Source: a virus (lineage: Duplodnaviria; Heunggongvirae; Uroviricota; Caudoviricetes). Taken from it: a stretch of 64,000 nucleotides of DNA. The notes under the pieces were generated by a model. The model did no database searches and was not told the origin of the DNA. It saw only the letters and a program-made list of their open reading frames with translations. This document shows positions 5,908-64,000 of this stretch, piece after piece (the stretch's first letter is position 1; every line of letters starts with the position of its first letter). The DNA is taken from IMG/VR virus record IMGVR_UViG_2585427754_000004, one strand, 5' to 3'. Made by a program: the position numbers and the translations under genes.

Positions 5908-6017
5908 TATTGCATCTCTTAGCTACTGACTAATGCGTTCTATTTTACACATAAGTTTTTAATCAATTTAACAGGCTCAAAGTGTAGAGCTTCTGGGCGT
6001 CTAAGACGACAAGTTAT

Positions 6018-6075
6018 GCCTGCTTCTGTATATATATAAATAATAAGTAACTTATTAAATATATACGGAAGCAGG
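6018..6075. repeat. AT-rich palindromic element of about 58 bp, copy 1
   Basis: GCCTGCTTCTGTATATAT ... ATATACGGAAGCAGG with AATAAGTAACTTATT at the centre; a near-identical element occurs at 51287..51345. Confidence 0.6.
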
Positions 6076-6182
6076 TCTTTTAAAAGACACCACCAGAACA
6101 AGTCCCTTCCGTTTCCACTTCCAAAAACTGCCACCAGTCGCTATCATCCGCTCATTGTGATAAGTAAGTAACTACCTACCAG

Positions 6183-6932
6183 GTGAGCCACATGAGCCAA
6201 ATCTTTTTCGATACCATCGACAACGACCAGTACGACTTCATGACAGAGTGGAATACCGCTGTTATGGACAAGTGGGTCGCTGAAAACATTGGTTTGTCGC
6301 GCTGTAAAGATGAGGCTGAACTCTTCGAGACGAAGTGGTTTGATTACCGCGACATGCATCCTCTGATGGCCACCTGTCTATTTACGGAGGCATACAAACG
6401 TCAGTACTCAAATATCATGCTGACGCACGGTCGCGAACACTTTGAAACAGCTCCGTTCACCACCGGGTTAAAACGCCTGCCTTATCAGGAGTTGTCGACT
6501 GCCAATAAAACGTCGCTATGGAAAGCACGCCAGTTTGCGGATCGCTATTGCTGCTCATACGACTACTTTATCTCCACCGTTCTTTCCGCAGCTGCACGAC
6601 GGCTGTGGGACAAGCTGCCGCGTCCGCAGCATTTGTGGCAGCCAGAACTGATTGAGATATTTGAAGATAAATTAGCCAGACGCGCAACAACCCGTCTGGA
6701 TGACTCTCTGGTTAGCTTTAAGCATATGGGAGACATGCAGTTCAACCCGATTCAGGAAAGCTATTTTGAGTGGATTCTGGAGCGTTTGCGCACCATCCCC
6801 CGCAGCAAGCGCATACGCGCAATTTTCTCCGCTATCTGGCTAATGGAAATCGTTCCAGAGCGCCTTATTTCCGCCCACTTTCCAGAAGAACTGGAAGAAG
6901 CACGGCGGTTTATTGATCCCCTATCTAATTAA
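6183..6932 (+). CDS. Hypothetical protein (immediately upstream of the helicase)
   Basis: 249-aa ORF with upstream TAAGTA palindrome motif; no recognisable motif. Confidence 0.35.
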   Translation: MSHMSQIFFDTIDNDQYDFMTEWNTAVMDKWVAENIGLSRCKDEAELFETKWFDYRDMHPLMATCLFTEAYKRQYSNIMLTHGREHFETAPFTTGLKRLPYQELSTANKTSLWKARQFADRYCCSYDYFISTVLSAAARRLWDKLPRPQHLWQPELIEIFEDKLARRATTRLDDSLVSFKHMGDMQFNPIQESYFEWILERLRTIPRSKRIRAIFSAIWLMEIVPERLISAHFPEELEEARRFIDPLSN

Positions 6933-13955: not shown

Positions 13956-14042
13956 GGGGAGTTAGTCCGTAGGGGCAGCGGGGTAGACTGTAAATCTACT
14001 GTCATTGCGACTCGGGTGGTTCGACTCCATCACTCCCCACCA
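13956..14042 (+). tRNA. tRNA-Tyr (anticodon GTA), type II with long variable arm
   Basis: Acceptor GGGGAGT/ACTCCCC, anticodon stem-loop GTAGA-CTGTAAA-TCTAC, T-arm GGTGGTTCGACTCCAT, CCA encoded. Confidence 0.8.
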
Positions 14043-14046
14043 AATT

Positions 14047-14122
14047 GCCGGTTTAGCTCAGTTGGTAGAGCGTCTGCCTTGTAAGCAGGATGTCAGCGGT
14101 TCGATCCCGTTAACCGGCACCA
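14047..14122 (+). tRNA. tRNA-Thr (anticodon TGT)
   Basis: Acceptor GCCGGTT/AACCGGC, D-arm GCTC ... GAGC, anticodon loop CTTGTAA, T-loop TTCGATC, CCA encoded. Confidence 0.75.
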
Positions 14123-14442
14123 ACACAACAGGTAAGAGCATTGGGCGAATCGGCGATACTGACCCACAAGCCCGTAAATCGATAGAGTCAGACCAGTGCT
14201 CTTACCGTTGTGAGGAAGTGCAGCTCTTTGAAGCAACCAGAAGATAAGCATCTGGCTTCACAACACAACGATAAGATCATTACGGTTAATCGTCGTTCAT
14301 GTGCACAATGACTGGTCGAAAGGTAGTGATCTTACCGTTGTGATGAATGCACAGGCTGATGTGCCGCAACTACAGTAGTGCGCGCTTTGCGGGGCTTGCT
14401 ACAACCCTGTGTCGGAGTTCAGCACCGACCATCACAATAGCT

Positions 14443-14529
14443 GGAGAGTAGGGAGCATGGTGCTCAAGCGGTCTTGAAAACCGTCCCATTGCGCAAGCGA
14501 TGATGGTTCGATTCCATTACTCTCCGCCA
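14443..14529 (+). tRNA. tRNA-Ser (anticodon TGA), type II
   Basis: Acceptor GGAGAGT/ACTCTCC, anticodon loop CTTGAAA, long variable arm, T-loop TTCGATT, CCA encoded. D-arm is atypical. Confidence 0.7.
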
Positions 14530-14684
14530 GACACAGCGTTGAGCGGTTTGGCCTTTTAATCACCCAGATTAAGACTCCGCTAACATAAACCAGACCGCTC
14601 AACGCTGTGATAGACAATTACGGCAGACGTTCTTAACCATAGCTTGCTAACATCCTAGCAACACTTTTTTTCAGCGCAAAATTC

Positions 14685-14708
14685 AAAGGGGCTTCGGCCC
14701 CTTTTTTG
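14685..14708 (+). terminator. Rho-independent terminator after the tRNA cluster
   Basis: GGGGCTTCGGCCCC followed by TTTTTT. Confidence 0.7.
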
Positions 14709-14750
14709 CAACTGAAAGAGTCAAGTCTACGAACTTTGTAGGAAGAAATA

Positions 14751-15101
14751 ATGACCAGCAAAGATAACACACCACTAAAAGTCACCCCTGAACACATTGA
14801 ACAACTCATTCAAAGTGAACATTATTTCACTGCATATGATGCCAGCCACGGGGATAACTTCATCTCTGTTTACAATTCAAAAACAGATATCGACAAAGGT
14901 CATGAGTCGTTAAAACTCTTAACGTTCTGCGTTATGGTTCTCAAAAATGGATATACCGTAACGGGAAAATCTGCGTGCGTAAGACCAGAAATCTTCAACT
15001 TTGATGTTGGTCGCGAGTACGCTCGAAAAGATGCTATCGATCAAATCTGGCCCCTGGAAGGCTATCTCCTGAAGCAAAAGTGGCATGAGGCAAAGCAATG
15101 A
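14751..15101 (+). CDS. Hypothetical protein
   Basis: 116-aa ORF preceded by GGAAG; stop overlaps the glutaredoxin start. Confidence 0.3.
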   Translation: MTSKDNTPLKVTPEHIEQLIQSEHYFTAYDASHGDNFISVYNSKTDIDKGHESLKLLTFCVMVLKNGYTVTGKSACVRPEIFNFDVGREYARKDAIDQIWPLEGYLLKQKWHEAKQ

Positions 15102-15343
15102 CGATCACTATCTACGGACGAGATAACTGCTCATACTGCAAACGTGCGGTCGAGCTGGCGAAGCAACTAAAGGGACATGGCTACGGTGATTATGAGTACA
15201 TCGACATCACCACTGCCGATATCGACAAGGAAAAACTTAGTGAAATTGTTGGTAAACCGGTAGAGACTATCCCCCAGGTGCTGATCGATGGCCAGCCGAT
15301 TGGCGGATACACAGAACTGGCTGCATACGTCAGCACCCTCTGA
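15098..15343 (+). CDS. Glutaredoxin (T4 NrdC-like)
   Basis: Active-site CSYC near the N-terminus and C-terminal IPQVLIDGQPIGGY, matching the glutaredoxin fold. Confidence 0.7.
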   Translation: MTITIYGRDNCSYCKRAVELAKQLKGHGYGDYEYIDITTADIDKEKLSEIVGKPVETIPQVLIDGQPIGGYTELAAYVSTL

Positions 15344-15348
15344 TTTTA

Positions 15349-15371
15349 ACGGCTCACAGGAGCCGTTTTTA
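15349..15371 (+). terminator. Rho-independent terminator
   Basis: ACGGCTC-acag-GAGCCGT followed by TTTTT. Confidence 0.6.
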
Positions 15372-15553
15372 TTCCCACCAAACTCACTCCCATTTCCCTT
15401 AAAATTCAAAAAACAACGTCAAAATGATTCCATACCTACTATGTATGGAATCATTAGTAAAAATGAGTTACTTTTACTCTTGATCCTATAAGAATCTATG
15501 CCTAATATACTGTTTACTTATACAGTACATCGGCGTAACTCGGTGATTGTCAT

Positions 15554-16657
15554 ATGAAAAATAGCTTTGACAGAGCACGCGCTGCGGAGAACACCTCAAA
15601 AGAGGCGATTGAGTATCTCGAAAGAGCATCTCAAATGCAGGCCGTTATGATCTCCCAGGTTAGCAATGACATGAGATTCTCGGACGCATTCATGTTATTC
15701 ACTCGCTTATCTCTGCTGATAACCAGACGTCGGCCAGAGATCGCTGTTCATTGTATTTTGATACATGTTTTGCCGCACATTGCCGATGTAAAAGTAAGTG
15801 ATATTAATAGGTTCATGGTGAACCAACTGGTCAACCCACTAATACTGGATGGCAAAATTGTTATGGGCCGCCGCGTTTTCTCTCTGATGAAGCAGTTCCT
15901 TAGCTGGTGCGCCTTCCAGGGGATGATAGACGTGTCACCGTTAAACGATATGTCACTTAACAAAGTTGCCGGTGGCGCAAAGCCCACGCCCCGCGAGCGG
16001 AAGCTGACTGACGCAGAGGTATGGGTGTTCTGGAATATATGGGACTACTTCAATGTGTGCGCTGGTACAAAATGGGCGGCCAGACTGTGTCTTGTATCAG
16101 CAAGACGACCTGACGAAGTACTGCGGGCTAAAAAAAGTGAGTTCAATCTTAAGCGTGGGGTTTGGAATCAAGGCAAGAGGAACAAATCTGCCCGTGAGCA
16201 TTCTCTGCCTTTAAGCTCATTAATGCGCACTTGTATTGAAGAGTTGTTCGAATATGGTAAAGACAGCCAGTGGCTCGTGCCTTCGAATAAAAAAATCGGG
16301 AAAGACCTTCCTATGTCTAAAGTGGCAATAGCCCAGGCATTACGTCGTATTCTGGAACGACCAGAACTGATGGAGCTTGAGCCATTTACACCCCGAGATT
16401 TGCGCCGTACTGCGCGTAGTTACTTCCCAGCATTAGGCATAAGCCAGGAGGTATCACGTAAAATCATGAACCACAGTCTTGAGGGGATAGATCGGGTCTA
16501 CGACCGTCACGATTATATGGACGAGATGCGAGACGCCTTAGAAAGTTTCTCGACGTACATCGCATCAATCGTAGAGCAACCGGATTTAGACGAAATTGAC
16601 CACAAATTTAAGGGAGATCGTCTATCAACAGAGCTTATTCGTGTAAATTTTTCATAG
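15554..16657 (+). CDS. int: Tyrosine recombinase / integrase
   Basis: C-terminal catalytic-domain pattern with Arg (RRPDEV), His and RDLRRTARS, then HS ... VYDRHDY carrying the putative Tyr. N-terminal start uncertain. Confidence 0.7.
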   Translation: MKNSFDRARAAENTSKEAIEYLERASQMQAVMISQVSNDMRFSDAFMLFTRLSLLITRRRPEIAVHCILIHVLPHIADVKVSDINRFMVNQLVNPLILDGKIVMGRRVFSLMKQFLSWCAFQGMIDVSPLNDMSLNKVAGGAKPTPRERKLTDAEVWVFWNIWDYFNVCAGTKWAARLCLVSARRPDEVLRAKKSEFNLKRGVWNQGKRNKSAREHSLPLSSLMRTCIEELFEYGKDSQWLVPSNKKIGKDLPMSKVAIAQALRRILERPELMELEPFTPRDLRRTARSYFPALGISQEVSRKIMNHSLEGIDRVYDRHDYMDEMRDALESFSTYIASIVEQPDLDEIDHKFKGDRLSTELIRVNFS

Positions 16658-17038
16658 AGACTTTATGGCCTCAACAACCTTTTGTGATGCGCCTTTCTCT
16701 TTACCGAATCGCTCGTTATATGCAGCAAGAACCTGTTTTTCGTCCTCGTTAAGAGGAGCAGTGCCTTCTTTGTATAAAAATGCTGCGAGTTCGGGTTGGC
16801 GTTCTTCCAGCACCATCATCATAAGACGACTTGGCTCAATGCCCAGCGCCAGCGCCAACGGACGAACCTTATCGATAGGCAAAGGAATTTTGCCACTTTT
16901 AATTAAAGAAAGGTTGTTGGCATTTTTGTAACCAATAAGTCTGGCTATTTGGGCCTGACTCATAGGTGAGGATTCAATCAACCCTGCGATAAAAGCAGCG
17001 TAGCGACTTTCTATAAATTCAATCTTGTTATCAGACAT
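16652..17038 (-). CDS. HTH (XRE-family) DNA-binding regulator
   Basis: Helix-turn-helix MSQAQIARLIGYKNANNLSLIKSGK; convergent with the integrase; palindromes in its upstream region. Confidence 0.5.
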   Translation of the reverse strand: MSDNKIEFIESRYAAFIAGLIESSPMSQAQIARLIGYKNANNLSLIKSGKIPLPIDKVRPLALALGIEPSRLMMMVLEERQPELAAFLYKEGTAPLNEDEKQVLAAYNERFGKEKGASQKVVEAIKSL

Positions 17039-17289
17039 GGTTACAACCTTTGCGCGTTCAATTCTCTCTGGTAAGTGCTTACCGATATTACATCAAAGGT
17101 TAGGGTTGTAAAGCTATTATCATTTTTTTCGATAGGCACTTAAAAGACCGGTTAAAGGCCATTGCACGGAGAAAAATTAGCCCAAAATAGGTAAGAAAAT
17201 CAACTTGCATATGATATGAATGTATTCAGTATTGATACAAATTTTAGTAGTATTCCTTACCATAGTATAAGTTAGAATGGATTGATTGA

Positions 17290-29541: not shown

Positions 29542-30615
29542 ATGGCAAAAGGAAAATCCGCACTGGCACTTGCTCTGAAAAAGAAAATCGGTAGCAACGA
29601 CGAAATTCAGAAAGTAACTCATTGGATTGATACAGGCTTTCCACCGTTAAACAAAGCTATTTCTGGTCGTTACGATGGCGGCTTCCCATGTGGTCGTATC
29701 GTCGAAGTATTCGGTCCTCCAAGTGCAGGGAAAACGTTCCTTGCAACAGCAGCGATGATCTCCGCTCAAAAACAAGATGGTCTGGCGGTATTCCTCGATC
29801 ATGAAAACAGTTTTGACGTTGGCCTGGCTGTAGCCAATGGCCTGAACGCAGATGAGGATGACGGTCAGTGGGTATACAAGCAGCCAGATACCTTCGAAGA
29901 CTCTGTAGAGTTGATCGGCACAATACTTAAATTGGTTCGTGATGAAGAGCTTATCCCCGAATCAGCACCTATCTGTATCGTGGCTGACTCTCTTGCGTCT
30001 ATGGTTCCGAACTCCAAAGCCGAGAAGTTCGAAAAGATGGCTGAAGGCACTGCCAAAGACAAAGATCAGCTAAACATGAACGACAATACGGCACTGGCTC
30101 GTGCGACGAGTGCGAACTTCCCTACTCTGGCTTTGTGGGCACGCAAATACAACGCCTGCATCATCTTCTTGAATCAGGTTCGCACAAAAATCGGTGTAAT
30201 GTTTGGCGACCCTACTACGTCGCCAGGTGGAGATTCACCGAAGTTCTACGCTTCTGTACGTATCCGTCTTGGTGCATCGGTGATGAAGGATGGTAAAGAG
30301 AAGATCGGCCAGGACGTAGGCGCAGAATGCATCAAAAACAAAGTTGCACCACCGTATGGCAAATGCACCTGGAAATTCTACTTCGATCCTACTCGTGGCC
30401 TCGACGTTATCGAATCGCTCGTCGAGTACATGCTGGAAGAAGGATACCTGCCAAAGAACGCCAGCGGGCGAGTTGAAATTGGTGACAAGAAATACACAAA
30501 ATCGCAGATCGTCGAGATGTATCGGGAGAAGCCATTAGCAGAAATCATTGCTGCGTTACAGACGATAGATGACCGACGAGAGAAGACATCACCAACAGAA
30601 GAACTAGAAGATTAA
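29542..30615 (+). CDS. recA: RecA-family recombinase
   Basis: GRIVEVFGPPSAGKTFLA Walker A and IFLNQVRTKIGVMFGDPTTSPGGDSPKFYASVR closely match bacterial RecA core motifs. Confidence 0.85.
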   Translation: MAKGKSALALALKKKIGSNDEIQKVTHWIDTGFPPLNKAISGRYDGGFPCGRIVEVFGPPSAGKTFLATAAMISAQKQDGLAVFLDHENSFDVGLAVANGLNADEDDGQWVYKQPDTFEDSVELIGTILKLVRDEELIPESAPICIVADSLASMVPNSKAEKFEKMAEGTAKDKDQLNMNDNTALARATSANFPTLALWARKYNACIIFLNQVRTKIGVMFGDPTTSPGGDSPKFYASVRIRLGASVMKDGKEKIGQDVGAECIKNKVAPPYGKCTWKFYFDPTRGLDVIESLVEYMLEEGYLPKNASGRVEIGDKKYTKSQIVEMYREKPLAEIIAALQTIDDRREKTSPTEELED

Positions 30616-55418: not shown

Positions 55419-56035
55419 TTATGTTCGGGATGTCAATTACTCAATCAGATGGAAGTTTGTGGATGAGTCCAGAATTTACTCCGCAAAATCTGATTAATAA
55501 AGGGACAATGTCTACATCTAAAGGTTCTGTTTTTCAAACATCAATCCCATCAAACAAATCATGTTTTTTTTTCATAAAAAGCAGTAATAAGGCGAACATG
55601 ATGTTTATTCATGAGCATAGTAACGGATACAATGCTCTCAGATTGCATCAGGTAAATGGTAGCCCCGGAACAATAACAGTTTATGCTTTTTCTGATATGG
55701 TGTTACCACATTCTGGCTATGGCATTGCCATGTATAACAGCGCAGGCGCAATGGTGTATCACGGTGAGATGATGCCCCTTGATGCGAAACTTATCACTAT
55801 TTCTGACCCTCAATTTACAATAGATATGGGGTATCCATGTGCGGTAATGCCTGCTATGGTTGGGGTATATAACTATAGACGAACCGATTACGACAGACCT
55901 GTCTATGTAACAATGACAGGTGCAACTGGAAACCAAGTATATAACGGTCAATGGTATTCCGGTAATGTCACATGGGATATTAAGAAGATTTATACAAACA
56001 AAATTCTGGTGATAAATACCTCCAAGTATGATTAG
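55364..56035 (+). CDS. Hypothetical aromatic-rich protein in low-GC segment (contains T9 tract)
   Basis: 223-aa ORF; T9 at 55564..55572 encodes CFFF. Confidence 0.35.
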   Translation: MVKFIYGAWFLHIHILGIIMFGMSITQSDGSLWMSPEFTPQNLINKGTMSTSKGSVFQTSIPSNKSCFFFIKSSNKANMMFIHEHSNGYNALRLHQVNGSPGTITVYAFSDMVLPHSGYGIAMYNSAGAMVYHGEMMPLDAKLITISDPQFTIDMGYPCAVMPAMVGVYNYRRTDYDRPVYVTMTGATGNQVYNGQWYSGNVTWDIKKIYTNKILVINTSKYD

Positions 56036-56138
56036 CCAATGCCTTTATTTGAACGATTGCCTGTTTATTTCTATTTAGTACCTTTTCATTTTTGAAATAA
56101 TTGCACCATTAAACAAATCACTTCTTAATGGTGCAATT

Positions 56139-57824
56139 ATGAATACAGCCCTTTCCATCATCGACGATGCCAACTCAAACACTGCTATCGACTATCGGCA
56201 GGAAATGAACGTCATCCACGAAATTGTGGCCGAGTGCGAGAAAGAGATCGCCTTCATGTATCAGGTACACGACTTCGTTTATGGCGACGAACGCCACAAC
56301 ATGATTAATCGCCTGCTGAGACTAAACCATCGACCAGATGAAGATCGCTCGCGTTTAAATCGAGGTTGGTTGGATAAAGTCGATCTGGAATGGGTGAAAC
56401 AGAATATTTGGGCCGAGTACTGGAGTAAGGTCACGGACATGACTAACGTTTTGCTGATCATGCCAGCTTCCCGTCGAGATGAGTGGCGCGAGCAGTTTAT
56501 AGAGGGCAAACAGGAAGTCATCAAAACTGACAGAACCGGCTACCAGATGAAGGTTAAAGAGTTCGTTGGTGTACCGGAGTTCAAAGCAGAAACGGTCATA
56601 CCCACGATGCTTAATTTGCTGAATGACAGGCACAAATATCTCTCTGAGCGCGTGTATGGCTTGTTTAAGGCGCTGAGTCCTGCGCACAAGACAAATAAGA
56701 CAAACGGTTTCAGCGAGCGTCTGATAATCGCTGACTGCATTTCTGATTTCTGGCGGGACAGCGTTAGCGTGAACTATCGCAAAGAGGACTACATCGACGA
56801 TCTGCGTGTCTTGCTTCATTTCTTCGCGCACAAAGAATTTATTACCATCAACCGCACTGCTGAGGTGCTATCAGCTGCGTATCGAGCAAACGACTGCCAG
56901 ACCGGTGACTGGATGAACGTCGATGGAAATCTGATGCGCGTGAAGATGTTCAAGAACGGCAACGTTCACTTTGAAATACATCCTGACGTGGCCTGGAAGT
57001 TGAATGAGGTGCTGGCTTACAGTATGCCTGCTGCAATCCCCGCGCCATGCCGAACTGCGCCAAAAACACGGGCACCAAAGCAGTTCGGGTTAATCCAGAA
57101 GACGATCTCCGTGCCGGTTCGCACTGCGCTTCGTGACGGGCGATTGAGCAAAGACAAAGGCGTATGGTACTTCTCTGATTCAGCTCTCCAGAAGTCGCAG
57201 GTGGAAGAGCTTGAGCGCACACTGAGCTTCATTGGCGGCGTGCAGGAGAAAAAGCACTGGCAGTTCCCGTATGACATCGGCCATACGCTAAATACGATTG
57301 TGGCTACCGGTTTAATACCGGATACAAAATCACACCAGTTCTACCCTACCCCACGCTTGATTGCTGAGTACGTTGCCAGAGCCACTGAATTGAAGCCTGG
57401 TGAGAAGCTGCTGGAGCCTCAAGCCGGACGTGGGGATCTTCTGGCCTATATTAACGCCGATCTGGAAGATGTTACCTGCATAGAAATCGCACCTCTCTTC
57501 GCTGATATCCTGCGTGGAAAAGGGTATACGAACACGATTTGCTGCGACTTCATAAAGTGGTCTGAGGACAACGCAGGTTATCAGTTCGACAAAATCGTTA
57601 TGAACCCGCCGTACTCGCTTGGTCGTCATAGAGAGCACACGCTGGCTGCGCTGGGGCATCTGAAAGTCGGCGGGCGTCTTGTAGCAGTATTGCCGGGCAC
57701 TGCGCCAATACTGGACTGGATGACGATGGATAATTACGTTTATGCCAGAGGGAAGTCGTTTACCAACGAGTTTGAAGACACAGGGATCACAGTCAGCGTA
57801 TACGTTTTCAAACGCGTTAAATGA
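56139..57824 (+). CDS. Large protein with C-terminal SAM-dependent N6-adenine methyltransferase domain
   Basis: Motif I LEPQAGRGDL followed by motif IV MNPPYS in the C-terminal third; about 370-aa N-terminal region of unknown function. Confidence 0.5.
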   Translation: MNTALSIIDDANSNTAIDYRQEMNVIHEIVAECEKEIAFMYQVHDFVYGDERHNMINRLLRLNHRPDEDRSRLNRGWLDKVDLEWVKQNIWAEYWSKVTDMTNVLLIMPASRRDEWREQFIEGKQEVIKTDRTGYQMKVKEFVGVPEFKAETVIPTMLNLLNDRHKYLSERVYGLFKALSPAHKTNKTNGFSERLIIADCISDFWRDSVSVNYRKEDYIDDLRVLLHFFAHKEFITINRTAEVLSAAYRANDCQTGDWMNVDGNLMRVKMFKNGNVHFEIHPDVAWKLNEVLAYSMPAAIPAPCRTAPKTRAPKQFGLIQKTISVPVRTALRDGRLSKDKGVWYFSDSALQKSQVEELERTLSFIGGVQEKKHWQFPYDIGHTLNTIVATGLIPDTKSHQFYPTPRLIAEYVARATELKPGEKLLEPQAGRGDLLAYINADLEDVTCIEIAPLFADILRGKGYTNTICCDFIKWSEDNAGYQFDKIVMNPPYSLGRHREHTLAALGHLKVGGRLVAVLPGTAPILDWMTMDNYVYARGKSFTNEFEDTGITVSVYVFKRVK

Positions 57825-57884
57825 TAGGTAAATACTTACTTAATTTGTGTAAGAATGTAATAACTAAACGATAAGAGAAAACAC

Positions 57885-58589
57885 ATGAACAACCTCCAGT
57901 TAGAGCATTTTAACGTCACAGGCCATTCTGATTTTCCTTTCAAGTTTACATTGAAAGGTTATGCAGAGGATGCGGTAGGCCAGATCATTATTGATAAAGG
58001 CATCGTTAAGTTTGAGGGGGATTTTGATGAATCCGCGAAAACATTCATAGACTTCGTTGCCAAACGTTGGAGCGAGCAATGGAAAGACCTGGAAAAGCGC
58101 GCTAGTGAGTTTGATCGGTTCATGGATGCAATGGATACAGCAAAAGAGGCTCTTGCTGCCGGGACTCCGTTAGATCTGGAGTCACTTTTCAACGGCGAAG
58201 TGGCCTCTGCGATGTTCGCCACCATGTTCGCGGGTGAGTTCGTCCGCAGCGGTGCCAAAAACTACCTTGAGCTGGATTACAACGTCCCTGCAATTGGCGA
58301 TTTCGTCGTTACCATCCAACGCAAAGAAGGTAAGACGCCAGGTGAACGCGTCGCAGAGCTTGAGGCCGTTGTGGATCAGCGTAACGGAGAGTGTGACCGT
58401 TTGATCAACGAGCTTCATGCACTTCGGGAAGAAAGAATATGCGCGGGTAGCAATACACGTAATGCAGCGGATATCTACTTCCAGTTAGTTGAGGAATGCC
58501 AGATTCCACCAGGCGGCTCTCTTGTCGATTACGTCAGACATTTAATGACGGAAGTTAACTCCAGCCATAAAGATGGTGAGGTGCGCTGA
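57885..58589 (+). CDS. Hypothetical protein
   Basis: 234-aa ORF with AAAACACATG initiation sequence. Confidence 0.35.
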   Translation: MNNLQLEHFNVTGHSDFPFKFTLKGYAEDAVGQIIIDKGIVKFEGDFDESAKTFIDFVAKRWSEQWKDLEKRASEFDRFMDAMDTAKEALAAGTPLDLESLFNGEVASAMFATMFAGEFVRSGAKNYLELDYNVPAIGDFVVTIQRKEGKTPGERVAELEAVVDQRNGECDRLINELHALREERICAGSNTRNAADIYFQLVEECQIPPGGSLVDYVRHLMTEVNSSHKDGEVR

Positions 58590-58969
58590 TGTTTGGCATT
58601 GACGCACAGCGTGTAGCCGCTTTTGCAAAAAGCCCTCTTGATAATCCCTTGTCTCGTAGTGAGCAAATGGAGCTGGCAAGGCTTTTTCTTCACATTCAAA
58701 AACAGGCAGACATTTTCAATAACATGCCTAATCAACCTATTCTGGATGGTCACATCCAGATGGTCATTAACAGTCATGAGAAAGGCTGGGCTGCAATCGT
58801 CCCCTGCACAATTACATACAAGTTGGCGAAAGAGGTTCAAGAGTTTCGAAAAGCCAGTGTCGAATCGGAGTCTACCAAAGCCGCAATAAACACTCTTATT
58901 CGCATGGGGTTCACATGGACCGGTGGAGCCTACTGGCAAGCACCTCAACCCATTTTATCCGGCAATTAG
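58589..58969 (+). CDS. Hypothetical protein
   Basis: 126-aa ORF, start overlaps previous stop. Confidence 0.3.
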   Translation: MFGIDAQRVAAFAKSPLDNPLSRSEQMELARLFLHIQKQADIFNNMPNQPILDGHIQMVINSHEKGWAAIVPCTITYKLAKEVQEFRKASVESESTKAAINTLIRMGFTWTGGAYWQAPQPILSGN

Positions 58970-59107
58970 GCGCTACAAATCCTTCTGCATGAATAAATAA
59001 AGGCCATAAGTTATGGCCTTAAATAAATTGTTTTCTACCTTTTCTTATTTGTGAAAATAAACCAGCACTTGGTAGTGCTTATGTAACAGCAAAGAAGAGA
59101 AAAACAC

Positions 59108-59659
59108 ATGAGTAACAAAATCGAAAATCCCGTAGTTCTCATTCACAAGCGCGAGAACCACGACTCCTATGCGGTGGCGATCACCAATGGGAGTCACGAT
59201 TTTTACGATGGCCTGCTAATGGCCTCAGTGTCGCCTGATGAGGCAGATAACTCTTTTGCCGTCTTCGCTATGGTTGGTTACTACATGGCTGCCGAAATTG
59301 AGAAGTTGCGGGCGCAGAGAGACGCATTAGCGGCGGAGAATGTGGCATTGCGATCTAAGGCTGCGGAACTGGCACATGAAGCGTCAAAAATTTACTCGGC
59401 ATATAACGCCACTATCACAGAGCCTGACGGGGATTTTATGGACATGCAGACATTGCATGAAATGCAGTGCATAGAAACTCCAGCCACCGATGCTTTTCTG
59501 GCTGAAGTACGTGCGCAGGGCGTGGATATGGCTCGTAACGCGATGATTGATTTTGTTGATGGTGAAGTTGGGCCAAACAAGAACGTTCCGGGGCTGATTA
59601 GAGGCGCAGAGATATGCGTAAGTATTGCTGAACAGCTTCGCAAAGGAGGCAACCAGTGA
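59108..59659 (+). CDS. Hypothetical protein
   Basis: 183-aa ORF with AAAACACATG initiation sequence. Confidence 0.35.
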   Translation: MSNKIENPVVLIHKRENHDSYAVAITNGSHDFYDGLLMASVSPDEADNSFAVFAMVGYYMAAEIEKLRAQRDALAAENVALRSKAAELAHEASKIYSAYNATITEPDGDFMDMQTLHEMQCIETPATDAFLAEVRAQGVDMARNAMIDFVDGEVGPNKNVPGLIRGAEICVSIAEQLRKGGNQ

Positions 59660-60732
59660 GCAAGATTGACTATCAGGCACTGCGTGAAAAGGCAGAGAAA
59701 GCAACGTGTGGCGAGTGGTCGCTAGAATATGGAGATGGCAGATTTGATGGTGATGATGCACTAATTCATCGCGAGGCTGCTGGATATATTCCCATTTGCA
59801 GAATTGAAGGAGCGCATCCTGAAAGCGGTTTCGATGAAGATTTCCAAATGGAGCAGCAGGCCAATGCTGAATTCATCGCCGCAGCCAACCCGGCTACTGT
59901 GCTGGTATTACTGGATGAACGGGAAAGGAACCAGCAATACATCAAACGCCGTGACCAGGAGAACGAGGATATTGCGCTAACGGTTGGGAAGCTGCGCGTT
60001 GAGCTGGAAGCCGCAGAGAAGCGCATTGCTGAACTGGAGTCACTGATGGAACCAAAGTTACCGCAGCCAGCGGTGGTTGACAACGATAAGTTCCGAGCGG
60101 ATTTTGAACGGTGGATGGTTGAGGATGAAAAGTGCATCGTAGGAAGCTCTGACCCTTATCCAGCTGGGATTGAGTCACGCAACTGGAGAGCATGGAACGC
60201 CTGCCGCGCCGCCATGCTTCAGAGTCAAGATAGTGGCATTAAGGATAGCTGGATAAGCTGTAGTGAGCGAATGCCTGTAATCGGCGAGCTAAATTGGAGA
60301 ACTGGTTTTCCTTTGCTGATTACGTGTGAGATCGGCGTTATACCAGCTTATTACGGCTTTGTGAGCGTTAATGGGGGTAAGCATTATGGTTTTATGGAAA
60401 GTTTTAAATACGGAGACGATAACGGCAACCATCCTCAAACTAATGAATATGGTCTGATTAGCAATGTCACACACTGGATGCCACTACCAGAACGCCGCAG
60501 GAGTCGAACAGTGAATAATGCAGAGTTATTTCAGAAAATATCGGCTCTCGCGACTGAATGCCACGCTATAGCATCTGAGCTTGATGTTGGCGATGAACGA
60601 ACCGAGATGTTCGAAATATACAGTGTGCTGCGCAATCTCTGTCGGCGTGGCTACGCCACTCAAGTAGGGCGAATGACTAACCCACTACTCTCATCCTGTG
60701 ATGAGGATGACTCGGATGAGGATGACGAATGA
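59656..60732 (+). CDS. Hypothetical protein with central coiled coil (possibly Ead/Ea22-like)
   Basis: 358-aa ORF overlapping neighbours; coiled-coil segment LTVGKLRVELEAAEKRIAELESL. Confidence 0.3.
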   Translation: MSKIDYQALREKAEKATCGEWSLEYGDGRFDGDDALIHREAAGYIPICRIEGAHPESGFDEDFQMEQQANAEFIAAANPATVLVLLDERERNQQYIKRRDQENEDIALTVGKLRVELEAAEKRIAELESLMEPKLPQPAVVDNDKFRADFERWMVEDEKCIVGSSDPYPAGIESRNWRAWNACRAAMLQSQDSGIKDSWISCSERMPVIGELNWRTGFPLLITCEIGVIPAYYGFVSVNGGKHYGFMESFKYGDDNGNHPQTNEYGLISNVTHWMPLPERRRSRTVNNAELFQKISALATECHAIASELDVGDERTEMFEIYSVLRNLCRRGYATQVGRMTNPLLSSCDEDDSDEDDE

Positions 60733-61112
60733 TGCATAAATCAGTAGCCGGTGAGTTTCAGAAGGAAGTCGATAATACCACTGATCTATTGGACGATATT
60801 TTAAGCATTCTCGCGCTGCTTGAGGCTGGCGATTGGTCAGAACATTGCACTAAAACAGAGCTAGGCGGTCGGCTTGAAAGAGAGATTACACGACTGATTA
60901 GCGATGCCCAAAATGATTTGTCACCTGAGCATCTCCCCTGCGATGTAGTTCTTGTGCCAGGGATGAGGATACACGAAGGCGTCAGAACGAAAACATTATT
61001 AACCGCATTACAGAGAAGAGCCGAACTAAGCTCGCGGATAAAGTTGATGCCATCCAAAATATTTGATGTCGTCAAATTTACGCCATCGCAACATACCGAG
61101 AGAGATAAATGA
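60729..61112 (+). CDS. Hypothetical protein
   Basis: 127-aa ORF, translationally coupled to neighbours. Confidence 0.3.
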   Translation: MMHKSVAGEFQKEVDNTTDLLDDILSILALLEAGDWSEHCTKTELGGRLEREITRLISDAQNDLSPEHLPCDVVLVPGMRIHEGVRTKTLLTALQRRAELSSRIKLMPSKIFDVVKFTPSQHTERDK

Positions 61113-61735
61113 GCACGGTAGCGAAAGATCTCACAGAAGATATTCTCAATGAAATTATTGCTGGTGCAAATACCTCGCTTGAGCAACTTCTTGCGTTAGC
61201 ACTGAGAGCCGAACGTCGAGACAGAAATCGTTTTTATGAGCGATTACCAGGGAAGCGACCAGATAGATCGGATGAAGAAGGTTGCGATATAGACTACATG
61301 GAGCCTTCAGAGATTTATCAACTTGGTAAAGATGACGGCTGGAACGCTTATCACGATGCTGTGATGAAGTTGGATGAAAAAGTTAAACCTCTTTCTCGAC
61401 CGGTAGATCACGGTTTCCGCGATAACTGCGAATGCTCTAGTTGCCAGACCACGGCCCGTATTTGTTCCGAATTGACAGATAAGTCCAGCCTAATCTACGA
61501 AGTTAATGTAGGCGGTAATACATGGGTCGAATGCACAAGAGCTGCATACGTAAGAGCAAAAGACAAGGGTGAATTAACCAGAGTTGTTACCAATCACCCA
61601 AATAATGAGCTTAAAGATCACCAGATTCGAGAACTGGTGAACGAGTTGAGAGATATTGCGGTTCAGTACCACGGAACGCAGCAATTGCGGGAGAAGATTG
61701 CCAGAGCAGTGAACAACTCAGTCCGTAAAAAATAA
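61109..61735 (+). CDS. Hypothetical protein (last gene of the co-directional block)
   Basis: 208-aa ORF followed by a hairpin at 61753..61777. Confidence 0.3.
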   Translation: MSTVAKDLTEDILNEIIAGANTSLEQLLALALRAERRDRNRFYERLPGKRPDRSDEEGCDIDYMEPSEIYQLGKDDGWNAYHDAVMKLDEKVKPLSRPVDHGFRDNCECSSCQTTARICSELTDKSSLIYEVNVGGNTWVECTRAAYVRAKDKGELTRVVTNHPNNELKDHQIRELVNELRDIAVQYHGTQQLREKIARAVNNSVRKK

Positions 61736-61948
61736 GCAATAGTACGATAAAGAGGCCCCATGCTCTTGATGGGGCCTGTAGCAACTAGCGTTATGGACGC
61801 TGGTTTACGTACTCAATGATCGCTTTGATAATCGCGAACATCGGCGGCACGATTTTGAACAGTAAGTTAACCATAACAGGCCTCACTTAGTTTTATCGCG
61901 CCTAGCTGCAAATACCTTTGGGATTGCCTTTGCAGTTGCAATATCTGT

Positions 61949-61968
61949 AGTCGCCAGATACTTACGGC
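61949..61968 (+). repeat. 20-bp direct repeat, copy 1 (AGTCGCCAGATACTTACGGC)
   Basis: 19/20 identical to the copy at 62122..62141, 173 bp away, in the non-coding stretch between the mobile element and the umuD-like gene. Confidence 0.6.
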
Positions 61969-62121
61969 ACGATTTCGAGTTAAGGTAAGGTTTTAGAGTC
62001 ACCAAAAACCTGGACTTAAATCTTCTTTGAGAACAACGATGTTTAGTAAATGGTCATTATTACCTGGTATGACCACTCAACGTTTCTTGATGAATCCAGT
62101 ACATTCGGTTAATCTTAATTC

Positions 62122-62141
62122 AGTCGCCAGATACTTATGGC
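62122..62141 (+). repeat. 20-bp direct repeat, copy 2 (AGTCGCCAGATACTTATGGC)
   Basis: See copy 1. Confidence 0.6.
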
Positions 62142-62174
62142 TCAGGAACAGAGCCTCAAACTCTGTTTCCCTTT

Positions 62175-62205
62175 AAAAAGCCCAGCCTAGTCAACTGGGC
62201 TTTTT
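62175..62205. terminator. Bidirectional terminator hairpin
   Basis: AAAAAGCCCAG-cctagtcaa-CTGGGCTTTTT, preceded by a second hairpin at 62145..62170. Confidence 0.6.
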
Positions 62206-62500
62206 AATGTCTATTTTTAACCCAACATACCCTCAATACTGCAACATCAGTGTCTTGCGAATTAAGATAGTGTGAATAGATTTTTCATGCAAGTGCATAA
62301 GCCTGTGGATAACTCAGGAAGGAAAAAGTGACTTCTGCGCACTTTAGACCGGACAAGGCGTTCGAAAAAGTCAATGGGAAGAAAAAATTTGTTAAAAATA
62401 ACGTTTGTTTGAATTGTATATATTTATGCCTTTCAATAGTTAGCATCTTATTAACATCTTTTTTAAGAGATAGAGTTCAAAAATATATAGCTTCAATATA

Positions 62501-62520
62501 TACTGTATGTGTATACAGTA
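62501..62520 (+). promoter_or_regulatory. LexA (SOS) box
   Basis: TACTGTATGTGTATACAGTA fits CTGT-N8-ACAG and is nearly a perfect palindrome; 16 bp upstream of the umuD-like start, with AAGAGG ribosome-binding site between. Confidence 0.75.
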
Positions 62521-62536
62521 TTAAGAGGCGAGTATT

Positions 62537-62926
62537 ATGGGCTTCCCTTCTCCTGCGGCGGATTATGCTGAGAGCCGTATTTCTCTTGATCAGCAGATAA
62601 TTAGACATCCTTCAGCGACCTACTTCATGAGGGCAGCTGATAGTCATCATCGTGAGGGAATATTACAGGGTGCATTGCTGGTGGTCGATTCCTCACTTAC
62701 CCCGGTTGATGGTTCTCTGCTTGTATGCGCTCTGGATGGGGAATATCGCGTAAAAAGATACCGGAAGTACCCACGTCAGCATCTGGAGGATTTAAGAACC
62801 GGTAAGAAGGAAGCATTGCCAAAGGATGACGATGGATGCACGGGCAGCAATGCCGTGTTTGGTGTGATCACTCACATTATCAACGACGCAAGAAGTGGCG
62901 AGTTTGATGATTGTCCCGTGATGTAG
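62537..62926 (+). CDS. umuD: UmuD'-like protein (LexA/S24 peptidase fold) encoded without the N-terminal arm
   Basis: Starts MGFPSPAADY, i.e. at the Cys-Gly cleavage site of UmuD; retains the Ser (AADSH) and Lys (RVKR) dyad and GVITHII near the C-terminus. No umuC follows. Confidence 0.65.
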   Translation: MGFPSPAADYAESRISLDQQIIRHPSATYFMRAADSHHREGILQGALLVVDSSLTPVDGSLLVCALDGEYRVKRYRKYPRQHLEDLRTGKKEALPKDDDGCTGSNAVFGVITHIINDARSGEFDDCPVM

Positions 62927-62938
62927 GAGAACTGATTA

Positions 62939-62963
62939 GGCGGTGCAATGCACCGCCTTTTTA
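62939..62963. terminator. Bidirectional terminator between the umuD-like gene and apbC
   Basis: GGCGGTGCA-a-TGCACCGCC followed by TTTTTA. Confidence 0.65.
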
Positions 62964-64000
62964 TCACACTGCGCGGAATGCGATTTCGCCAGGTATTACT
63001 TCACCTTGCCAATACATTTGGGCGGCAACGCGATCTGCGAGGTCACGATAAATAGCCGTAAATTCGCTATCTGGACGACTAATAACGGTTGGTGTTCCGT
63101 TATCCAGATCTTCACGAAGAGAGATATGAAGTGGCATTTGGCCTAACAACTGCGTGTTGTATTTCTCGGCCAGTTTCTGTGCGCCACCGGTGCCAAAAAT
63201 TGGCTCGTGATGACCGCAGTTACTGCAAATATGCACACTCATGTTTTCGACGATACCCAGTACCGGCACTTCGACTTTTTCGAACATCACAATGCCTTTC
63301 TTCGCATCGATCAGCGCGATGTCTTGCGGCGTAGTTACCACAACCGCACCAGTTACAGGAATGTTCTGCGCCAGCGTCAACTGAATATCACCAGTGCCCG
63401 GCGGCATATCGAGAACGAGATAGTCCAGATCAGGCCATAGAGTTTCCTGCAACATCTGCATCAGCGCCTTGCTGGCCATCGGTCCACGCCACACCATTGC
63501 ATTGTCGTCGGTGACCAGATAACCAATAGAGTTGGTTGCCAGGCCATGAGACATGATAGGTGCCATGTGAGTACCGTCAGGTGAGGTTGGACGTTGGTTT
63601 TCCGCGCCCAGCATGGTTGGAATTGATGGACCATAGATATCGGCATCCAAAATACCAACTTTCGCACCTTCAGCAGCCAACGCCAGTGCCAGGTTTACCG
63701 CCGTGGAGGATTTACCCACGCCGCCCTTGCCTGAGCTGACGGCGATAATGTTCTTAACGCCATTAATGCCTGGTTGGTTTTTGACGCGCTTAAGCGTGGC
63801 AATGTTGTACGACAGCTTCCAGTCAATAGCCTTTGCGCCAGTGATACGGAGCAGATCACCACTACATTGCTCTTTCAGGTCTTCAAAAGGCTTATTCCAC
63901 ACGAAAGGCATGATTAGTTCGACATGCAGTGTGTCATCCATCAACGCAACATGGTGTAACGCTTTAAGCGTAGTCAGGTTGTGTTTCAGGGTTGGGTGCT
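62964..64000 (-). CDS. apbC: Fe-S cluster carrier ATPase ApbC/Mrp, 3' portion (5' end outside window)
   Basis: Near-identical to enterobacterial ApbC over the visible length: Walker A SSGKGGVGKSSTAVNLALALA, CSNCGHHEP and C-terminal WQGEVIPGEIAFRAV. ORF runs off the window end. Confidence 0.9.
   Translation of the reverse strand, partial: HPTLKHNLTTLKALHHVALMDDTLHVELIMPFVWNKPFEDLKEQCSGDLLRITGAKAIDWKLSYNIATLKRVKNQPGINGVKNIIAVSSGKGGVGKSSTAVNLALALAAEGAKVGILDADIYGPSIPTMLGAENQRPTSPDGTHMAPIMSHGLATNSIGYLVTDDNAMVWRGPMASKALMQMLQETLWPDLDYLVLDMPPGTGDIQLTLAQNIPVTGAVVVTTPQDIALIDAKKGIVMFEKVEVPVLGIVENMSVHICSNCGHHEPIFGTGGAQKLAEKYNTQLLGQMPLHISLREDLDNGTPTVISRPDSEFTAIYRDLADRVAAQMYWQGEVIPGEIAFRAV

Follow-up and report, generated by a model that had tools for sequence, protein, structure and literature searches.

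What does a pair of 20-bp direct repeats signify when it lies between the last gene of a phage-type operon and a copy of the chromosomal gene apbC? The pair lies in positions 61736–64000 of a 64,000-nt stretch of viral DNA (the window, i.e., the whole stretch that was analysed). A sequence-only reading had offered two answers: an integration junction beside chromosomal apbC, or apbC and umuD' as cargo of a circular element. The second proved right, as the same block is present in circular plasmids and in phage Cyrano. The repeats themselves most likely mark, by analogy with known systems, a toxin gene controlled by a small RNA (sRNA), which would help to keep the plasmid in the cell.

The genomic setting of the repeats

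Positions 1447–64000 of the window align with the circular plasmid pAVS0223-B (108.6 kb) in five collinear blocks of 98.2–99.5% identity, and the collinearity spans the repA coordinate origin of that plasmid. The same positions are collinear with phage Cyrano, the circular relatives being of about 108–113 kb and of the SSU5/pECOH89 type. The window shares the backbone of this type, a circular replicon of about 100–115 kb: it is 98–99.5% collinear with members of the SSU5/pHCM2/pECOH89/p09EL50 family and resembles them in having repA, parAB-like genes, dnaE, nrdAB, thyX, dfr, tRNAs and siphovirus structural genes. The plasmid pECOH89 itself has the region 61736–64000, whereas phage SSU5, compared with 56000–64000, matches the methyltransferase part only, with no match across the toxin–antitoxin module, humD or apbC. 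The genes and signals that frame the repeats are listed here.

61109–61735, plus strand: last open reading frame (ORF) among the co-directional early genes; hypothetical protein, 208 aa (ORF list)
61753–61777, both strands: predicted bidirectional intrinsic terminator of the plus-strand operon and the minus-strand candidate toxin gene (terminator scan)
62285–62536, plus strand: P1/P7-type region upstream of humD, 79–80% identical to P7, SJ46 and some P1 records
62304–62312, plus strand: DnaA box TGTGGATAA (motif search)
62476–62504, plus strand: predicted humD promoter, TTCAAA-17-TATACT (promoter scan)
62501–62520, plus strand: LexA box TACTGTATGTGTATACAGTA, consensus (motif search; P1 LexA-site annotation)
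62537–62926, plus strand: humD, pre-processed UmuD'-like S24 protein, 129 aa (Pfam Peptidase_S24)
62938–62958, unstranded: predicted terminator between the convergent humD and apbC (terminator scan)
62964–64000, minus strand: apbC (mrp), first half of an apbC–metG cargo block, cut by the end of the window (plasmid and phage annotations)

The co-directional phage-type genes do end at 61735, with an ORF that has no Pfam match and is a "hypothetical protein" in plasmid records. The UmuD'-like gene that had been noticed about 800 bp further on is humD: the product has the S24 domain, is identical to P1 HumD at 118 of 129 residues (91%), and is named "HumD family translesion DNA polymerase" in RefSeq. 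Judging by its upstream LexA box, humD is SOS-regulated and LexA-controlled. Homology to P7 covers the box and some 250 bp upstream of it; P1, however, has hot and lxr before humD and phd-doc after it, whereas the window has the type I module before it and apbC–metG after it.

The next gene is apbC, as had been read, on the minus strand from 62964, but its description as near-identical to the chromosomal gene was overstated: compared with K-12 mrp, identity is 82.1% in DNA and 94.8% in protein, with 161 synonymous and 19 nonsynonymous codon differences. K-12 mrp–metG gives a single 3.3-kb alignment (88.4%) bounded by both stop codons. In pAVS0223-B, pEC332_01 and the phage Cyrano record, the gene order is humD, apbC, metG, and then about 15 kb more of element genes, i.e., the further element genes beyond apbC that had been named as evidence against a junction; chromosomal synteny past apbC–metG is absent in these relatives. 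Because metG and then element genes follow apbC there, apbC–metG is read as a diverged two-gene cargo block, which would have been captured from an enterobacterial chromosome and held under purifying selection. The suggestion to look for metG past 64000 thus found its gene in the relatives but was misleading as a check, because metG is cargo too: since elements carry diverged housekeeping copies, metG beside apbC is no proof of chromosomal context. The cargo site beside the module holds metG and apbC, and in E. marmotae der. Literature searches turned up nothing relevant on the peptide described below, on metG in SSU5-type elements or on methionyl-tRNA synthetase (MetRS) in phage-plasmids, and the pECOH89 announcement mentions neither the module nor the two cargo genes metG and apbC. 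Such cargo raises the question of which role an additional MetRS, ApbC or Der would play in a phage-plasmid.

The humD–apbC–metG arrangement is found in 98 E. coli genomes, the best 20 matches listed being plasmid records of 72–120 kb, and chromosomal apbC matches fall in the 80–90% identity band only. It is extremely improbable that the window ends at a prophage–chromosome junction, with the repeats as att-type duplications and apbC as the host's own gene. Such a junction would fit the divergent chromosomal gene order that apbC–metG retains and the presence of the module in ten E. coli "chromosome" records, but the single chromosomal record inspected contains a P1-like element with phd-doc, not apbC, after humD. 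Collinearity with circular plasmids continues through and past the supposed junction, metG is followed by element genes in the relatives, homology to K-12 ends exactly at two stop codons with a DNA identity of just 82–94%, and both repeat copies are internal, 173 bp apart, neither lying at one of the element's two ends. The tyrosine recombinase ORF (15554–16657, Pfam Phage_integrase) is indeed some 45 kb away (46 kb in the sequence-only reading), a distance that had been called unusual for a simple att-adjacent prophage but is normal in SSU5/pECOH89-type phage-plasmids and does not point to an odd att arrangement. Going by these alignments, 61736–64000 belongs to the interior of a known circular phage-plasmid type rather than to the margin of an integrated prophage; plasmid collinearity and the element genes after metG refute the junction.

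A candidate toxin gene and its putative antitoxin RNA

The remaining features lie between the operon and the humD region.

61874–61791, minus strand: ORF of a candidate type I toxin of 27 aa, MVNLLFKIVPPMFAIIKAIIEYVNQRP, with its stop codon (ORF scan, ten loci)
61895–61903, minus strand: element Y of the predicted mRNA, GGCGCGAU, which can pair with X1 in the untranslated region (UTR) or X2 in the ORF (61845–61858)
61906–61935, minus strand: conserved 5' UTR hairpin CUGCAAA...UUUGCAG (consensus fold, ten UTRs)
61949–61968, minus strand: repeat copy 1, predicted sRNA target in the toxin mRNA 5' UTR, 75–94 nt upstream of the AUG (repeat D2)
62051–62075, unstranded: inverted repeat TGGTCAT-N11-ATGACCA, where the toxin promoter or mRNA 5' end is expected (by eye)
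62087–62115, plus strand: predicted sRNA promoter, TTGATG-17 nt-TAATCT (ten-locus alignment)
62122–62206, plus strand: candidate antitoxin sRNA, about 84 nt (promoter, fold, covariation, terminator)

The two repeats (D2: 61949–61968 and 62122–62141) are, as first described, identical at 19 of 20 positions with a spacing of 173 bp; none of 300 dinucleotide shuffles of 61736–62536 gave a direct pair of 20-mers with that identity. Ten homologous loci were compared, on plasmids of Escherichia, Citrobacter, Kosakonia, Klebsiella and Enterobacter with otherwise unrelated backbones. Eleven columns vary in nucleotides 1–19 of the repeat, with the identical change in both copies, and where the copies within a locus differ in these nucleotides, the difference is C>T or A>G in 11 of 11 cases, which gives G·U wobbles and zero clashes. 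Gene conversion could explain the concerted change, but neither the wobble-only bias nor the structural covariation described below. A direct repeat in the DNA is expected because a divergent, non-overlapping antisense pair necessarily gives one. From its pattern of change, the repeat pair is best read as the site of antisense pairing in a type I toxin–antitoxin module and not as att.

The candidate toxin ORF has a Shine–Dalgarno sequence (SD), GAGG, at 61881–61884, 6 nt upstream of the ATG, and the terminator, which has a stem of 9 bp and, after it, a minus-strand T-run, lies 14 nt past the stop; an equivalent GC-rich hairpin is present right after the small ORF at all homologous loci. Short (<60 aa) and hydrophobic, the ORF has both an SD and a terminator of its own: 59% of its residues are AILMFVWC, although with two Lys, one Glu and a Pro-Pro the window peptide is less cleanly hydrophobic than DinQ. 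The ORF is conserved in frame at the ten loci, and L4, K7, P11, I15 and R26 are near-invariant in an alignment of 13 peptides (A1), with the consensus MxLLLLKLxxPxxxIIxxxxxYxxxR over 25–30 aa. In pECOH89 the ORF differs from that of the window by six synonymous and two nonsynonymous codon changes and has a GTG start (read from the sequence). Most non-E. coli loci have two tandem paralogous toxin ORFs; the window lineage is without the proximal ORF and about 110 bp present in the Kosakonia, Citrobacter and Klebsiella loci. The peptide has no Pfam or NCBIfam match. Promoter scan and inspection gave no convincing sigma-70 match for the toxin promoter; visual inspection suggested several weak candidates, not one of which is conserved in each of the three subgroups. 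The inverted repeat in the expected promoter region is retained in E. marmotae via changes in both arms (TGGTCGT/ACGACCA). A toxin gene under SOS control, like dinQ, was considered and rejected: the sole CTG-N10-CAG site in 61700–62560 is the humD LexA box.

Upstream of the ORF, the predicted 5' UTR allows alternative pairings. X1 and X2 form another direct repeat, D5, with identity at 13 of 14 positions. In the consensus fold, the partner of Y is X1 (with a compensatory change); in the minimum-free-energy fold calculated for the window mRNA it is the copy in the ORF, and the SD and AUG are enclosed; Y:X1 is possible in 10/10 loci and Y:ORF in 7/10. The UTR hairpin stem is preserved in the Kpse locus by a two-sided change, C-G to U-A, and the target site is partly displayed in a covarying hairpin (arms 61941–61946 and 61956–61961).

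The candidate sRNA would consist of a 5' recognition region (62122–62141, repeat copy 2), a covarying stem-loop and an intrinsic terminator (62184–62201) with T-run. In 10/10 loci the -35 element TTGA(T/A/G)G and the -10 element TAA(T/G)(C/A)T keep a 17-nt spacing and a constant distance to repeat copy 2; the sRNA unit is 84–86 nt and the target-to-sRNA spacing 152–179 nt. The window thus has, on the opposite strand, 5' of the mRNA and within about 300 nt, an sRNA gene with a predicted promoter and terminator of its own, and complementarity to the mRNA of at least 15 nt maintained in evolution. The duplex predicted for the window has 20 bp, one of them a G·U, and an energy of -38.5 kcal/mol; cognate duplexes across the ten loci range from -38 to -47 kcal/mol, and the Kpn and Kpse variants with other loci's targets give about -15 to -36 kcal/mol. 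The sRNA fold has a z-score of -5.4. In the alignment of ten sRNA sequences (A2), 93% of cells are paired (slid controls, 33–57%), and the score of the alignment is reached in 0/500 shuffles. Compensatory changes are seen at 13 pairs in A2 and at nine pairs in the UTR structure of the ten loci, counts that are not of independent events because the loci are phylogenetically related. The several hairpins of the sequence-only reading are real, being terminator-like stem-loops (61753–61777, 62184–62201 and 62938–62958) and other conserved stems.

The module is 92–99% conserved in 115 E. coli genomes, and the P1-like element of E. coli 06-00048 has the same toxin–antitoxin module and humD unit. A scan of contigs with a degenerate 18-mer gave at least 120 matches, mostly chance; among the matches listed, nhmmer recognised one true module, that of Citrobacter sp. 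NCU1 (L118).

Proposed mechanism and its alternatives

The locus is probably an internal mosaic joint of an SSU5/pECOH89-type phage-plasmid, where a dinQ/agrB-like type I module, a P1/P7-type humD region and an apbC–metG cargo block meet. A minus-strand mRNA would encode the 27-aa peptide (61874–61791) and stop at the terminator at 61753–61777, and the 5' 20 nt of the divergent sRNA of about 84 nt (62122–62206) would pair with its 5' UTR at 61949–61968. By the example of dinQ/agrB and DqlB/agrB, this binding would block toxin synthesis, through cleavage of the duplex and/or through a freed element Y that shuts the ribosome-binding site. On loss of the plasmid, the short-lived sRNA would decay and the peptide would kill or arrest the cell, thereby stabilising the phage-plasmid.

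The repeats could instead be DNA-level protein-binding sites, such as iterons, an operator pair or a partition site. Two near-identical intergenic 20-mers, and the closeness of the module to rep genes in several other plasmids, would suit that explanation, but it is quite improbable, considering that there are just two copies, one of them exactly at the start of a promoter–terminator unit with covarying stems, that repA is about 27 kb from the pair in the window, and that copy differences are confined to changes preserving RNA G·U pairing, a bias which DNA binding does not predict. A relic, once functional and now decaying in the SSU5-like lineage, would account for the loss of the proximal toxin ORF and its 110 bp; this is very improbable, as every part, from the ORF and its SD through target, promoter and sRNA to the terminators, is intact, the repeat pair still gives a 20-bp duplex, and both the conservation in the 115 E. 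coli genomes and the mainly synonymous divergence from pECOH89 speak against decay. Finally, the sRNA–mRNA pair may be real but may control a non-toxin small membrane protein, or the sRNA may act chiefly on other targets, without addiction. The peptide has no homology to curated toxin families and is moderately hydrophobic, and one of two tandem ORFs has been lost in the window lineage, all of which would be in keeping with such a role. It is nevertheless unlikely: architecture, size and terminator-flanked layout fit what T1TAdb describes for non-overlapping type I families, low-copy plasmids and phage-plasmids from several genera have the module, often near replication or other stability genes, and DqlB/agrB modules of equivalent architecture are proven toxic.

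If the preferred reading, a type I toxin–antitoxin module, is true, an addiction module would help to explain how these phage-plasmids persist without conjugation, and would be relevant to plasmid curing, as is the case for DqlB/agrB on pOXA-48. Phage-plasmids of the SSU5/pECOH89 type, with resistance genes such as blaCTX-M-15, are in circulation among E. coli of clinical and animal origin. More generally, a short direct repeat in "empty" intergenic DNA can signal a divergent antisense pair.

Comparison with known type I systems

By sequence, the module stands apart from the families it resembles. Membership in the DinQ/DqlB and AgrB families was considered and is unsupported by Rfam, NCBIfam, Pfam, hhalign, nhmmer and blastn (DinQ and DqlB compared). 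The window sRNA matches Rfam AgrB (RF02891) over the full model length at 27.1 bits (E 0.11), below the gathering threshold of 40 bits, and its homologues have no match, whereas K-12 agrA and agrB score 106–108 bits. The 13-peptide profile gives an hhalign probability of 2% against DqlB and 0.2% against DinQ; the likeness to DqlB seen on inspection is a loose A-h-h-E/D-x-h motif and an MxNLL start only. NCBIfam is silent on the window peptide, whereas RefSeq names "DinQ-like type I toxin DqlB" in pOXA-48. Neither blastn nor nhmmer found similarity of UTR or ORF to dinQ/dqlB, at settings that detect dinQ against pOXA-48 dqlB; the 5' UTR similarity to dinQ by which the dql genes were first found is thus absent here. 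The window toxin also differs from dinQ in having no LexA box, and most non-E. coli loci differ from dinQ/agrB in their two tandem paralogous toxin ORFs. The module shares with the T1TAdb non-overlapping class an antisense RNA that lies 5' of the mRNA without overlap and pairs with a long 5' UTR, but neither peptide nor sRNA gives a match by sequence or family, the match to OrzO-P in one homologue being sub-threshold (34 vs 60 bits).

We lean slightly towards a previously undescribed enterobacterial type I family, whose carriers would be SSU5-like phage-plasmids, some P1-like ones, and plasmids both conjugative and other, with toxins of 25–30 aa and an sRNA of about 84 nt that co-evolves with its target into weakly cross-pairing variants, located beside a site for housekeeping cargo. 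Its likeness to K-12 dinQ/agrB and to DqlB/agrB of pOXA-48 and pOXA-484 is one of architecture: a terminator follows the toxin ORF (PMC5066626, PMC12365149). As in dinQ/agrB, a 5' tail, a stem-loop and a terminator make up the sRNA, which has a total length of about 84 nt; the complement of its 5' end lies in the 5' UTR, about 75–95 nt upstream of the start codon, the two sites forming a direct repeat; and the UTR has mutually exclusive pairings. DinQ, at 27 aa, is of the same length as the window peptide, and the window sRNA resembles pOXA-48 agrB in its terminator only. Experiments have proved plasmid DqlB/agrB modules, which share this architecture, to be addiction systems (PMC12365149, PMC12317039).

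The circular element and its cargo genes

The end of the window had been read, from the sequence only, either as an integration junction next to chromosomal apbC or as part of a circular element that carries apbC and umuD' as cargo. The features behind that reading are present: the end of the co-directional ORF block, a UmuD'-like gene, apbC running past the 64000 edge, two direct repeats, hairpins (terminator-like stems) and an integrase gene.

Features considered (window positions)
15554-16657: tyrosine recombinase (Pfam Phage_integrase)
61109-61735, plus strand: last ORF of the co-directional block
61753-61777: terminator, just downstream of the candidate toxin ORF
61874-61791, minus strand: candidate toxin ORF, peptide MVNLLFKIVPPMFAIIKAIIEYVNQRP; SD GAGG 6 nt upstream of its ATG
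61949-61968: repeat copy 1, 75-94 nt upstream of that ATG
62087-62115: candidate sRNA promoter TTGATG-17-TAATCT, predicted start at repeat copy 2
62122-62141: repeat copy 2
62184-62201: sRNA terminator, end of the predicted ~84-nt RNA
62304-62312: perfect DnaA box
62476-62504: promoter
62501-62520: consensus LexA box
62537-62926, plus strand: humD, S24 family; product identical to P1 HumD at 118/129 aa
62938-62958: terminator-like hairpin
62964 to past the window end, minus strand: apbC (plasmid and phage annotation)

In pEC332_01, pAVS0223-B and phage Cyrano, the last early ORF is followed by about 800 bp without annotation, then humD, apbC (minus), metG (plus) and DUF5983, and after these by another 15 kb or so of element genes. 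This refutes the junction, as continuation of element genes past apbC was the very observation named beforehand as speaking against it. A search for metG beyond 64000, proposed as a check for the chromosome, would give a false positive, since metG is present in these relatives yet is itself cargo. The cargo alternative is supported: window 1447-64000 aligns with the complete circular 108,564-bp pAVS0223-B in five collinear blocks (98.2-99.5% identity), passing over the coordinate origin of that record, at repA. The terminal 3 kb of the window, most of which is contained in 98 E. coli genomes, is 99.3-99.8% identical to its best-matching E. coli records, which are plasmids of 72-120 kb, and has further matches in phages Cyrano and CMS-2020a, which are related to Salmonella phage SSU5; E. 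coli chromosomes match it via their own apbC only, in the 80-90% band. The region is part of a circular phage-plasmid, without a junction. The remoteness of the integrase gene, thought unusual, is normal for the tyrosine recombinase in the group of pECOH89, p09EL50, pHCM2 and SSU5, known as ‘phage-like plasmids’ (PMC3999498); a role in dimer resolution is proposed for it.

Window segments 1-1446 (near the tail-fibre end) and 59343-60235 (ead/Ea22-like early genes) have no match in pAVS0223-B and are variable, which is typical mosaicism. At window ~29734-29736, pAVS0223-B has 1,269 bp extra (record 5163-6431) within an annotated LAGLIDADG homing endonuclease gene; it resembles a mobile insertion, either an intein or a homing-endonuclease gene, found in some family members and absent from the window.

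The description of apbC as near-identical to the chromosomal gene was too strong, as identity to K-12 mrp is 82.1% (DNA) and 94.8% (protein). Together, apbC-metG and K-12 mrp-metG give a single 3.3-kb alignment (88.4% identity), the limits of which are the two stop codons. Judged by codon differences from K-12, which are mostly synonymous (105 synonymous and 8 nonsynonymous in metG; 161 and 19 in apbC), both element copies look to be under purifying selection. Their divergence is unequal (62964-64000 and beyond; 13965-17256 in comparison locus L001), metG having 94.2% nucleotide identity, a hint that the two genes were captured at different times or from different donors, or recombined with a host copy afterwards. 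In an E. marmotae phage-plasmid (NZ_CP072690.1, record 76739-81761), the place of humD is taken by der, which encodes an essential GTPase, ahead of apbC-metG; the site beside apbC-metG apparently gathers copies of host housekeeping genes.

Positions 62285-62536 share 79-80% identity with the region preceding humD in P7, SJ46 and some P1 records. In P1 this shared LexA site has a second target, the divergent gene lxr, which the window lacks. A promoter-like TTAATA-18-TATATT (62495-62524, minus strand) reads leftwards from beneath the LexA box, and a transcript from it into 62210-62490 would end at the bidirectional 62173-62207 hairpin. In the P1-like element of E. coli 06-00048, the same unit of ORF, candidate toxin-antitoxin module and humD is followed by phd-doc. 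That element (chromosome record 1859219-1877694; the single place inspected among ten on chromosomes) adjoins an IS21 pseudogene, and is either a real phage-plasmid integration or an assembly join. The studied coordinates thus span the joint of two parts: a mosaic module that P1-like phages also have, and a site where host housekeeping genes are carried as cargo.

The direct repeat as a probable pairing site

[quoted passage not shown] An sRNA from the plus strand pairs with a minus-strand mRNA only where the plus strand repeats, and a direct repeat is therefore geometrically necessary. The sRNA fold has a z-score of -5.4 in the window, and Rfam AgrB matches 62127-62208 (plus) at full length, with a sub-threshold 27.1 bits (gathering 40).

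Among ten loci, whose relatedness means that the counts overstate independent events, the first 19 nt of the repeat have 11 variable columns, with the identical change in both copies each time. All 11 of the differences within a locus, read from target to sRNA, are C>T or A>G; in the predicted RNA duplex each yields a wobble (G·U or U·G) and none a clash. The two copies co-evolve. Were the repeats DNA-binding sites, a bias towards wobbles only would not be predicted. That the junction is refuted, the cargo alternative supported and the repeat a type I pairing site is, as one statement, probable. Predicted cognate duplexes have energies of -38 to -47 kcal/mol; against targets of other loci, the variants from Klebsiella and K. 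pseudosacchari reach only about -15 to -36 kcal/mol, which suggests diverged pairing specificities.

Three helices find support in the sRNA alignment (93% of cells paired, 13 pairs with compensatory changes), whose score was reached by 0/500 shuffles; slid controls gave 33-57%. The 5' UTR also has a conserved architecture (31 predicted pairs, 9 with compensatory changes), in which a hairpin presents the target, its stem changing alongside the sRNA in the Klebsiella variant. A repeat, D5, occurs inside the ORF (61845-61858) and beside the target (61965-61978), and the two copies are mutually exclusive partners of the UTR element Y (61895-61903). Pairing of Y with the UTR copy is possible in 10/10 loci; pairing with codons 7-12 of the first ORF, which encloses SD and AUG, in 7/10. 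Binding of the sRNA beside the UTR copy would free Y, which would then close the ribosome-binding site, a partly supported mechanism. An inverted repeat TGGTCAT-N11-ATGACCA (62051-62075), between toxin UTR and sRNA promoter, survives two-arm changes in E. marmotae (TGGTCGT/ACGACCA); it may serve as an operator or form the stem at the 5' end of the toxin mRNA.

Distribution and relation to known type I families

By blastn, on which these distribution figures rest, the module is present in 115/5,426 complete E. coli genomes and about 100 PLSDB plasmids: 83 from Escherichia, mostly SSU5-like among the records listed, the others being Citrobacter, Enterobacter, Kosakonia and Klebsiella plasmids, some with conjugative IncF-type replicons. 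It lacks annotation in nearly all records. Thirteen peptides (25-30 aa) align in frame and almost without gaps, with near-invariant L4, K7, P11, I15 and R26; the pECOH89 candidate ORF differs from that of the window by 6 synonymous and 2 nonsynonymous codons and begins, like dinQ, with GTG. Most non-E. coli loci (L006 ~1620-1810, L007, L008, L016, L019) have two tandem paralogous small ORFs on one putative transcript, in Kosakonia MHMLLLFLKLAHPVTVIIMTLREYWQNR then MGKLLLKLLQSAIVITLAIMEFINKR. Of such a pair the window lineage retains only the distal ORF, the proximal one having been lost; two Citrobacter loci have only the proximal. Just past the sRNA terminator, a stretch of about 150 bp (L006 ~2150-2300; L007, L008, L016-L019), …AAATACTACATATAGGGG…GAGTATTCTAGTA…CAAGAGTTGATTTTGAGGTTAAATTGAGGTTG…, is kept in Kosakonia, Citrobacter, Klebsiella and Enterobacter plasmids, but the window lacks it; possibly it is a further element without annotation.

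AgrB is the antisense RNA of the E. coli type I toxin dinQ. The window matches the AgrB model below threshold, and its homologues show no match; the peptide matched nothing in NCBIfam or Pfam, nor did its profile match DqlB or DinQ. With nhmmer and blastn against dinQ/dqlB, similarity was found in the sRNA terminator only, whereas dinQ and dqlB readily detect each other. The candidate toxin gene has no LexA box. With the architecture fitting and the family membership tests negative, the candidate module is filed as a putative new member of the non-overlapping, divergent type I class described in T1TAdb.

Plasmid genes resembling dinQ (dql) were predicted in 2016 (PMC5066626), and work of 2025 showed that DqlB/agrB acts on pOXA-48 and pOXA-484 as an addiction module with a toxic product that the sRNA neutralises (PMC12365149, PMC12317039). 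By all architectural criteria the candidate module matches dinQ/agrB and DqlB/agrB, and, with its peptide compared with DqlB and DinQ, it may be distantly related to dinQ/dql. The K-12 locus is laid out like that of the window: dinQ lies on one strand with agrA/agrB divergent on the other, and the target in the dinQ 5' UTR recurs as a direct repeat in the DNA at the 5' end of agrB. The possible two-partner switch of Y is similar to the change of structure demonstrated for dinQ (PMC5066626).
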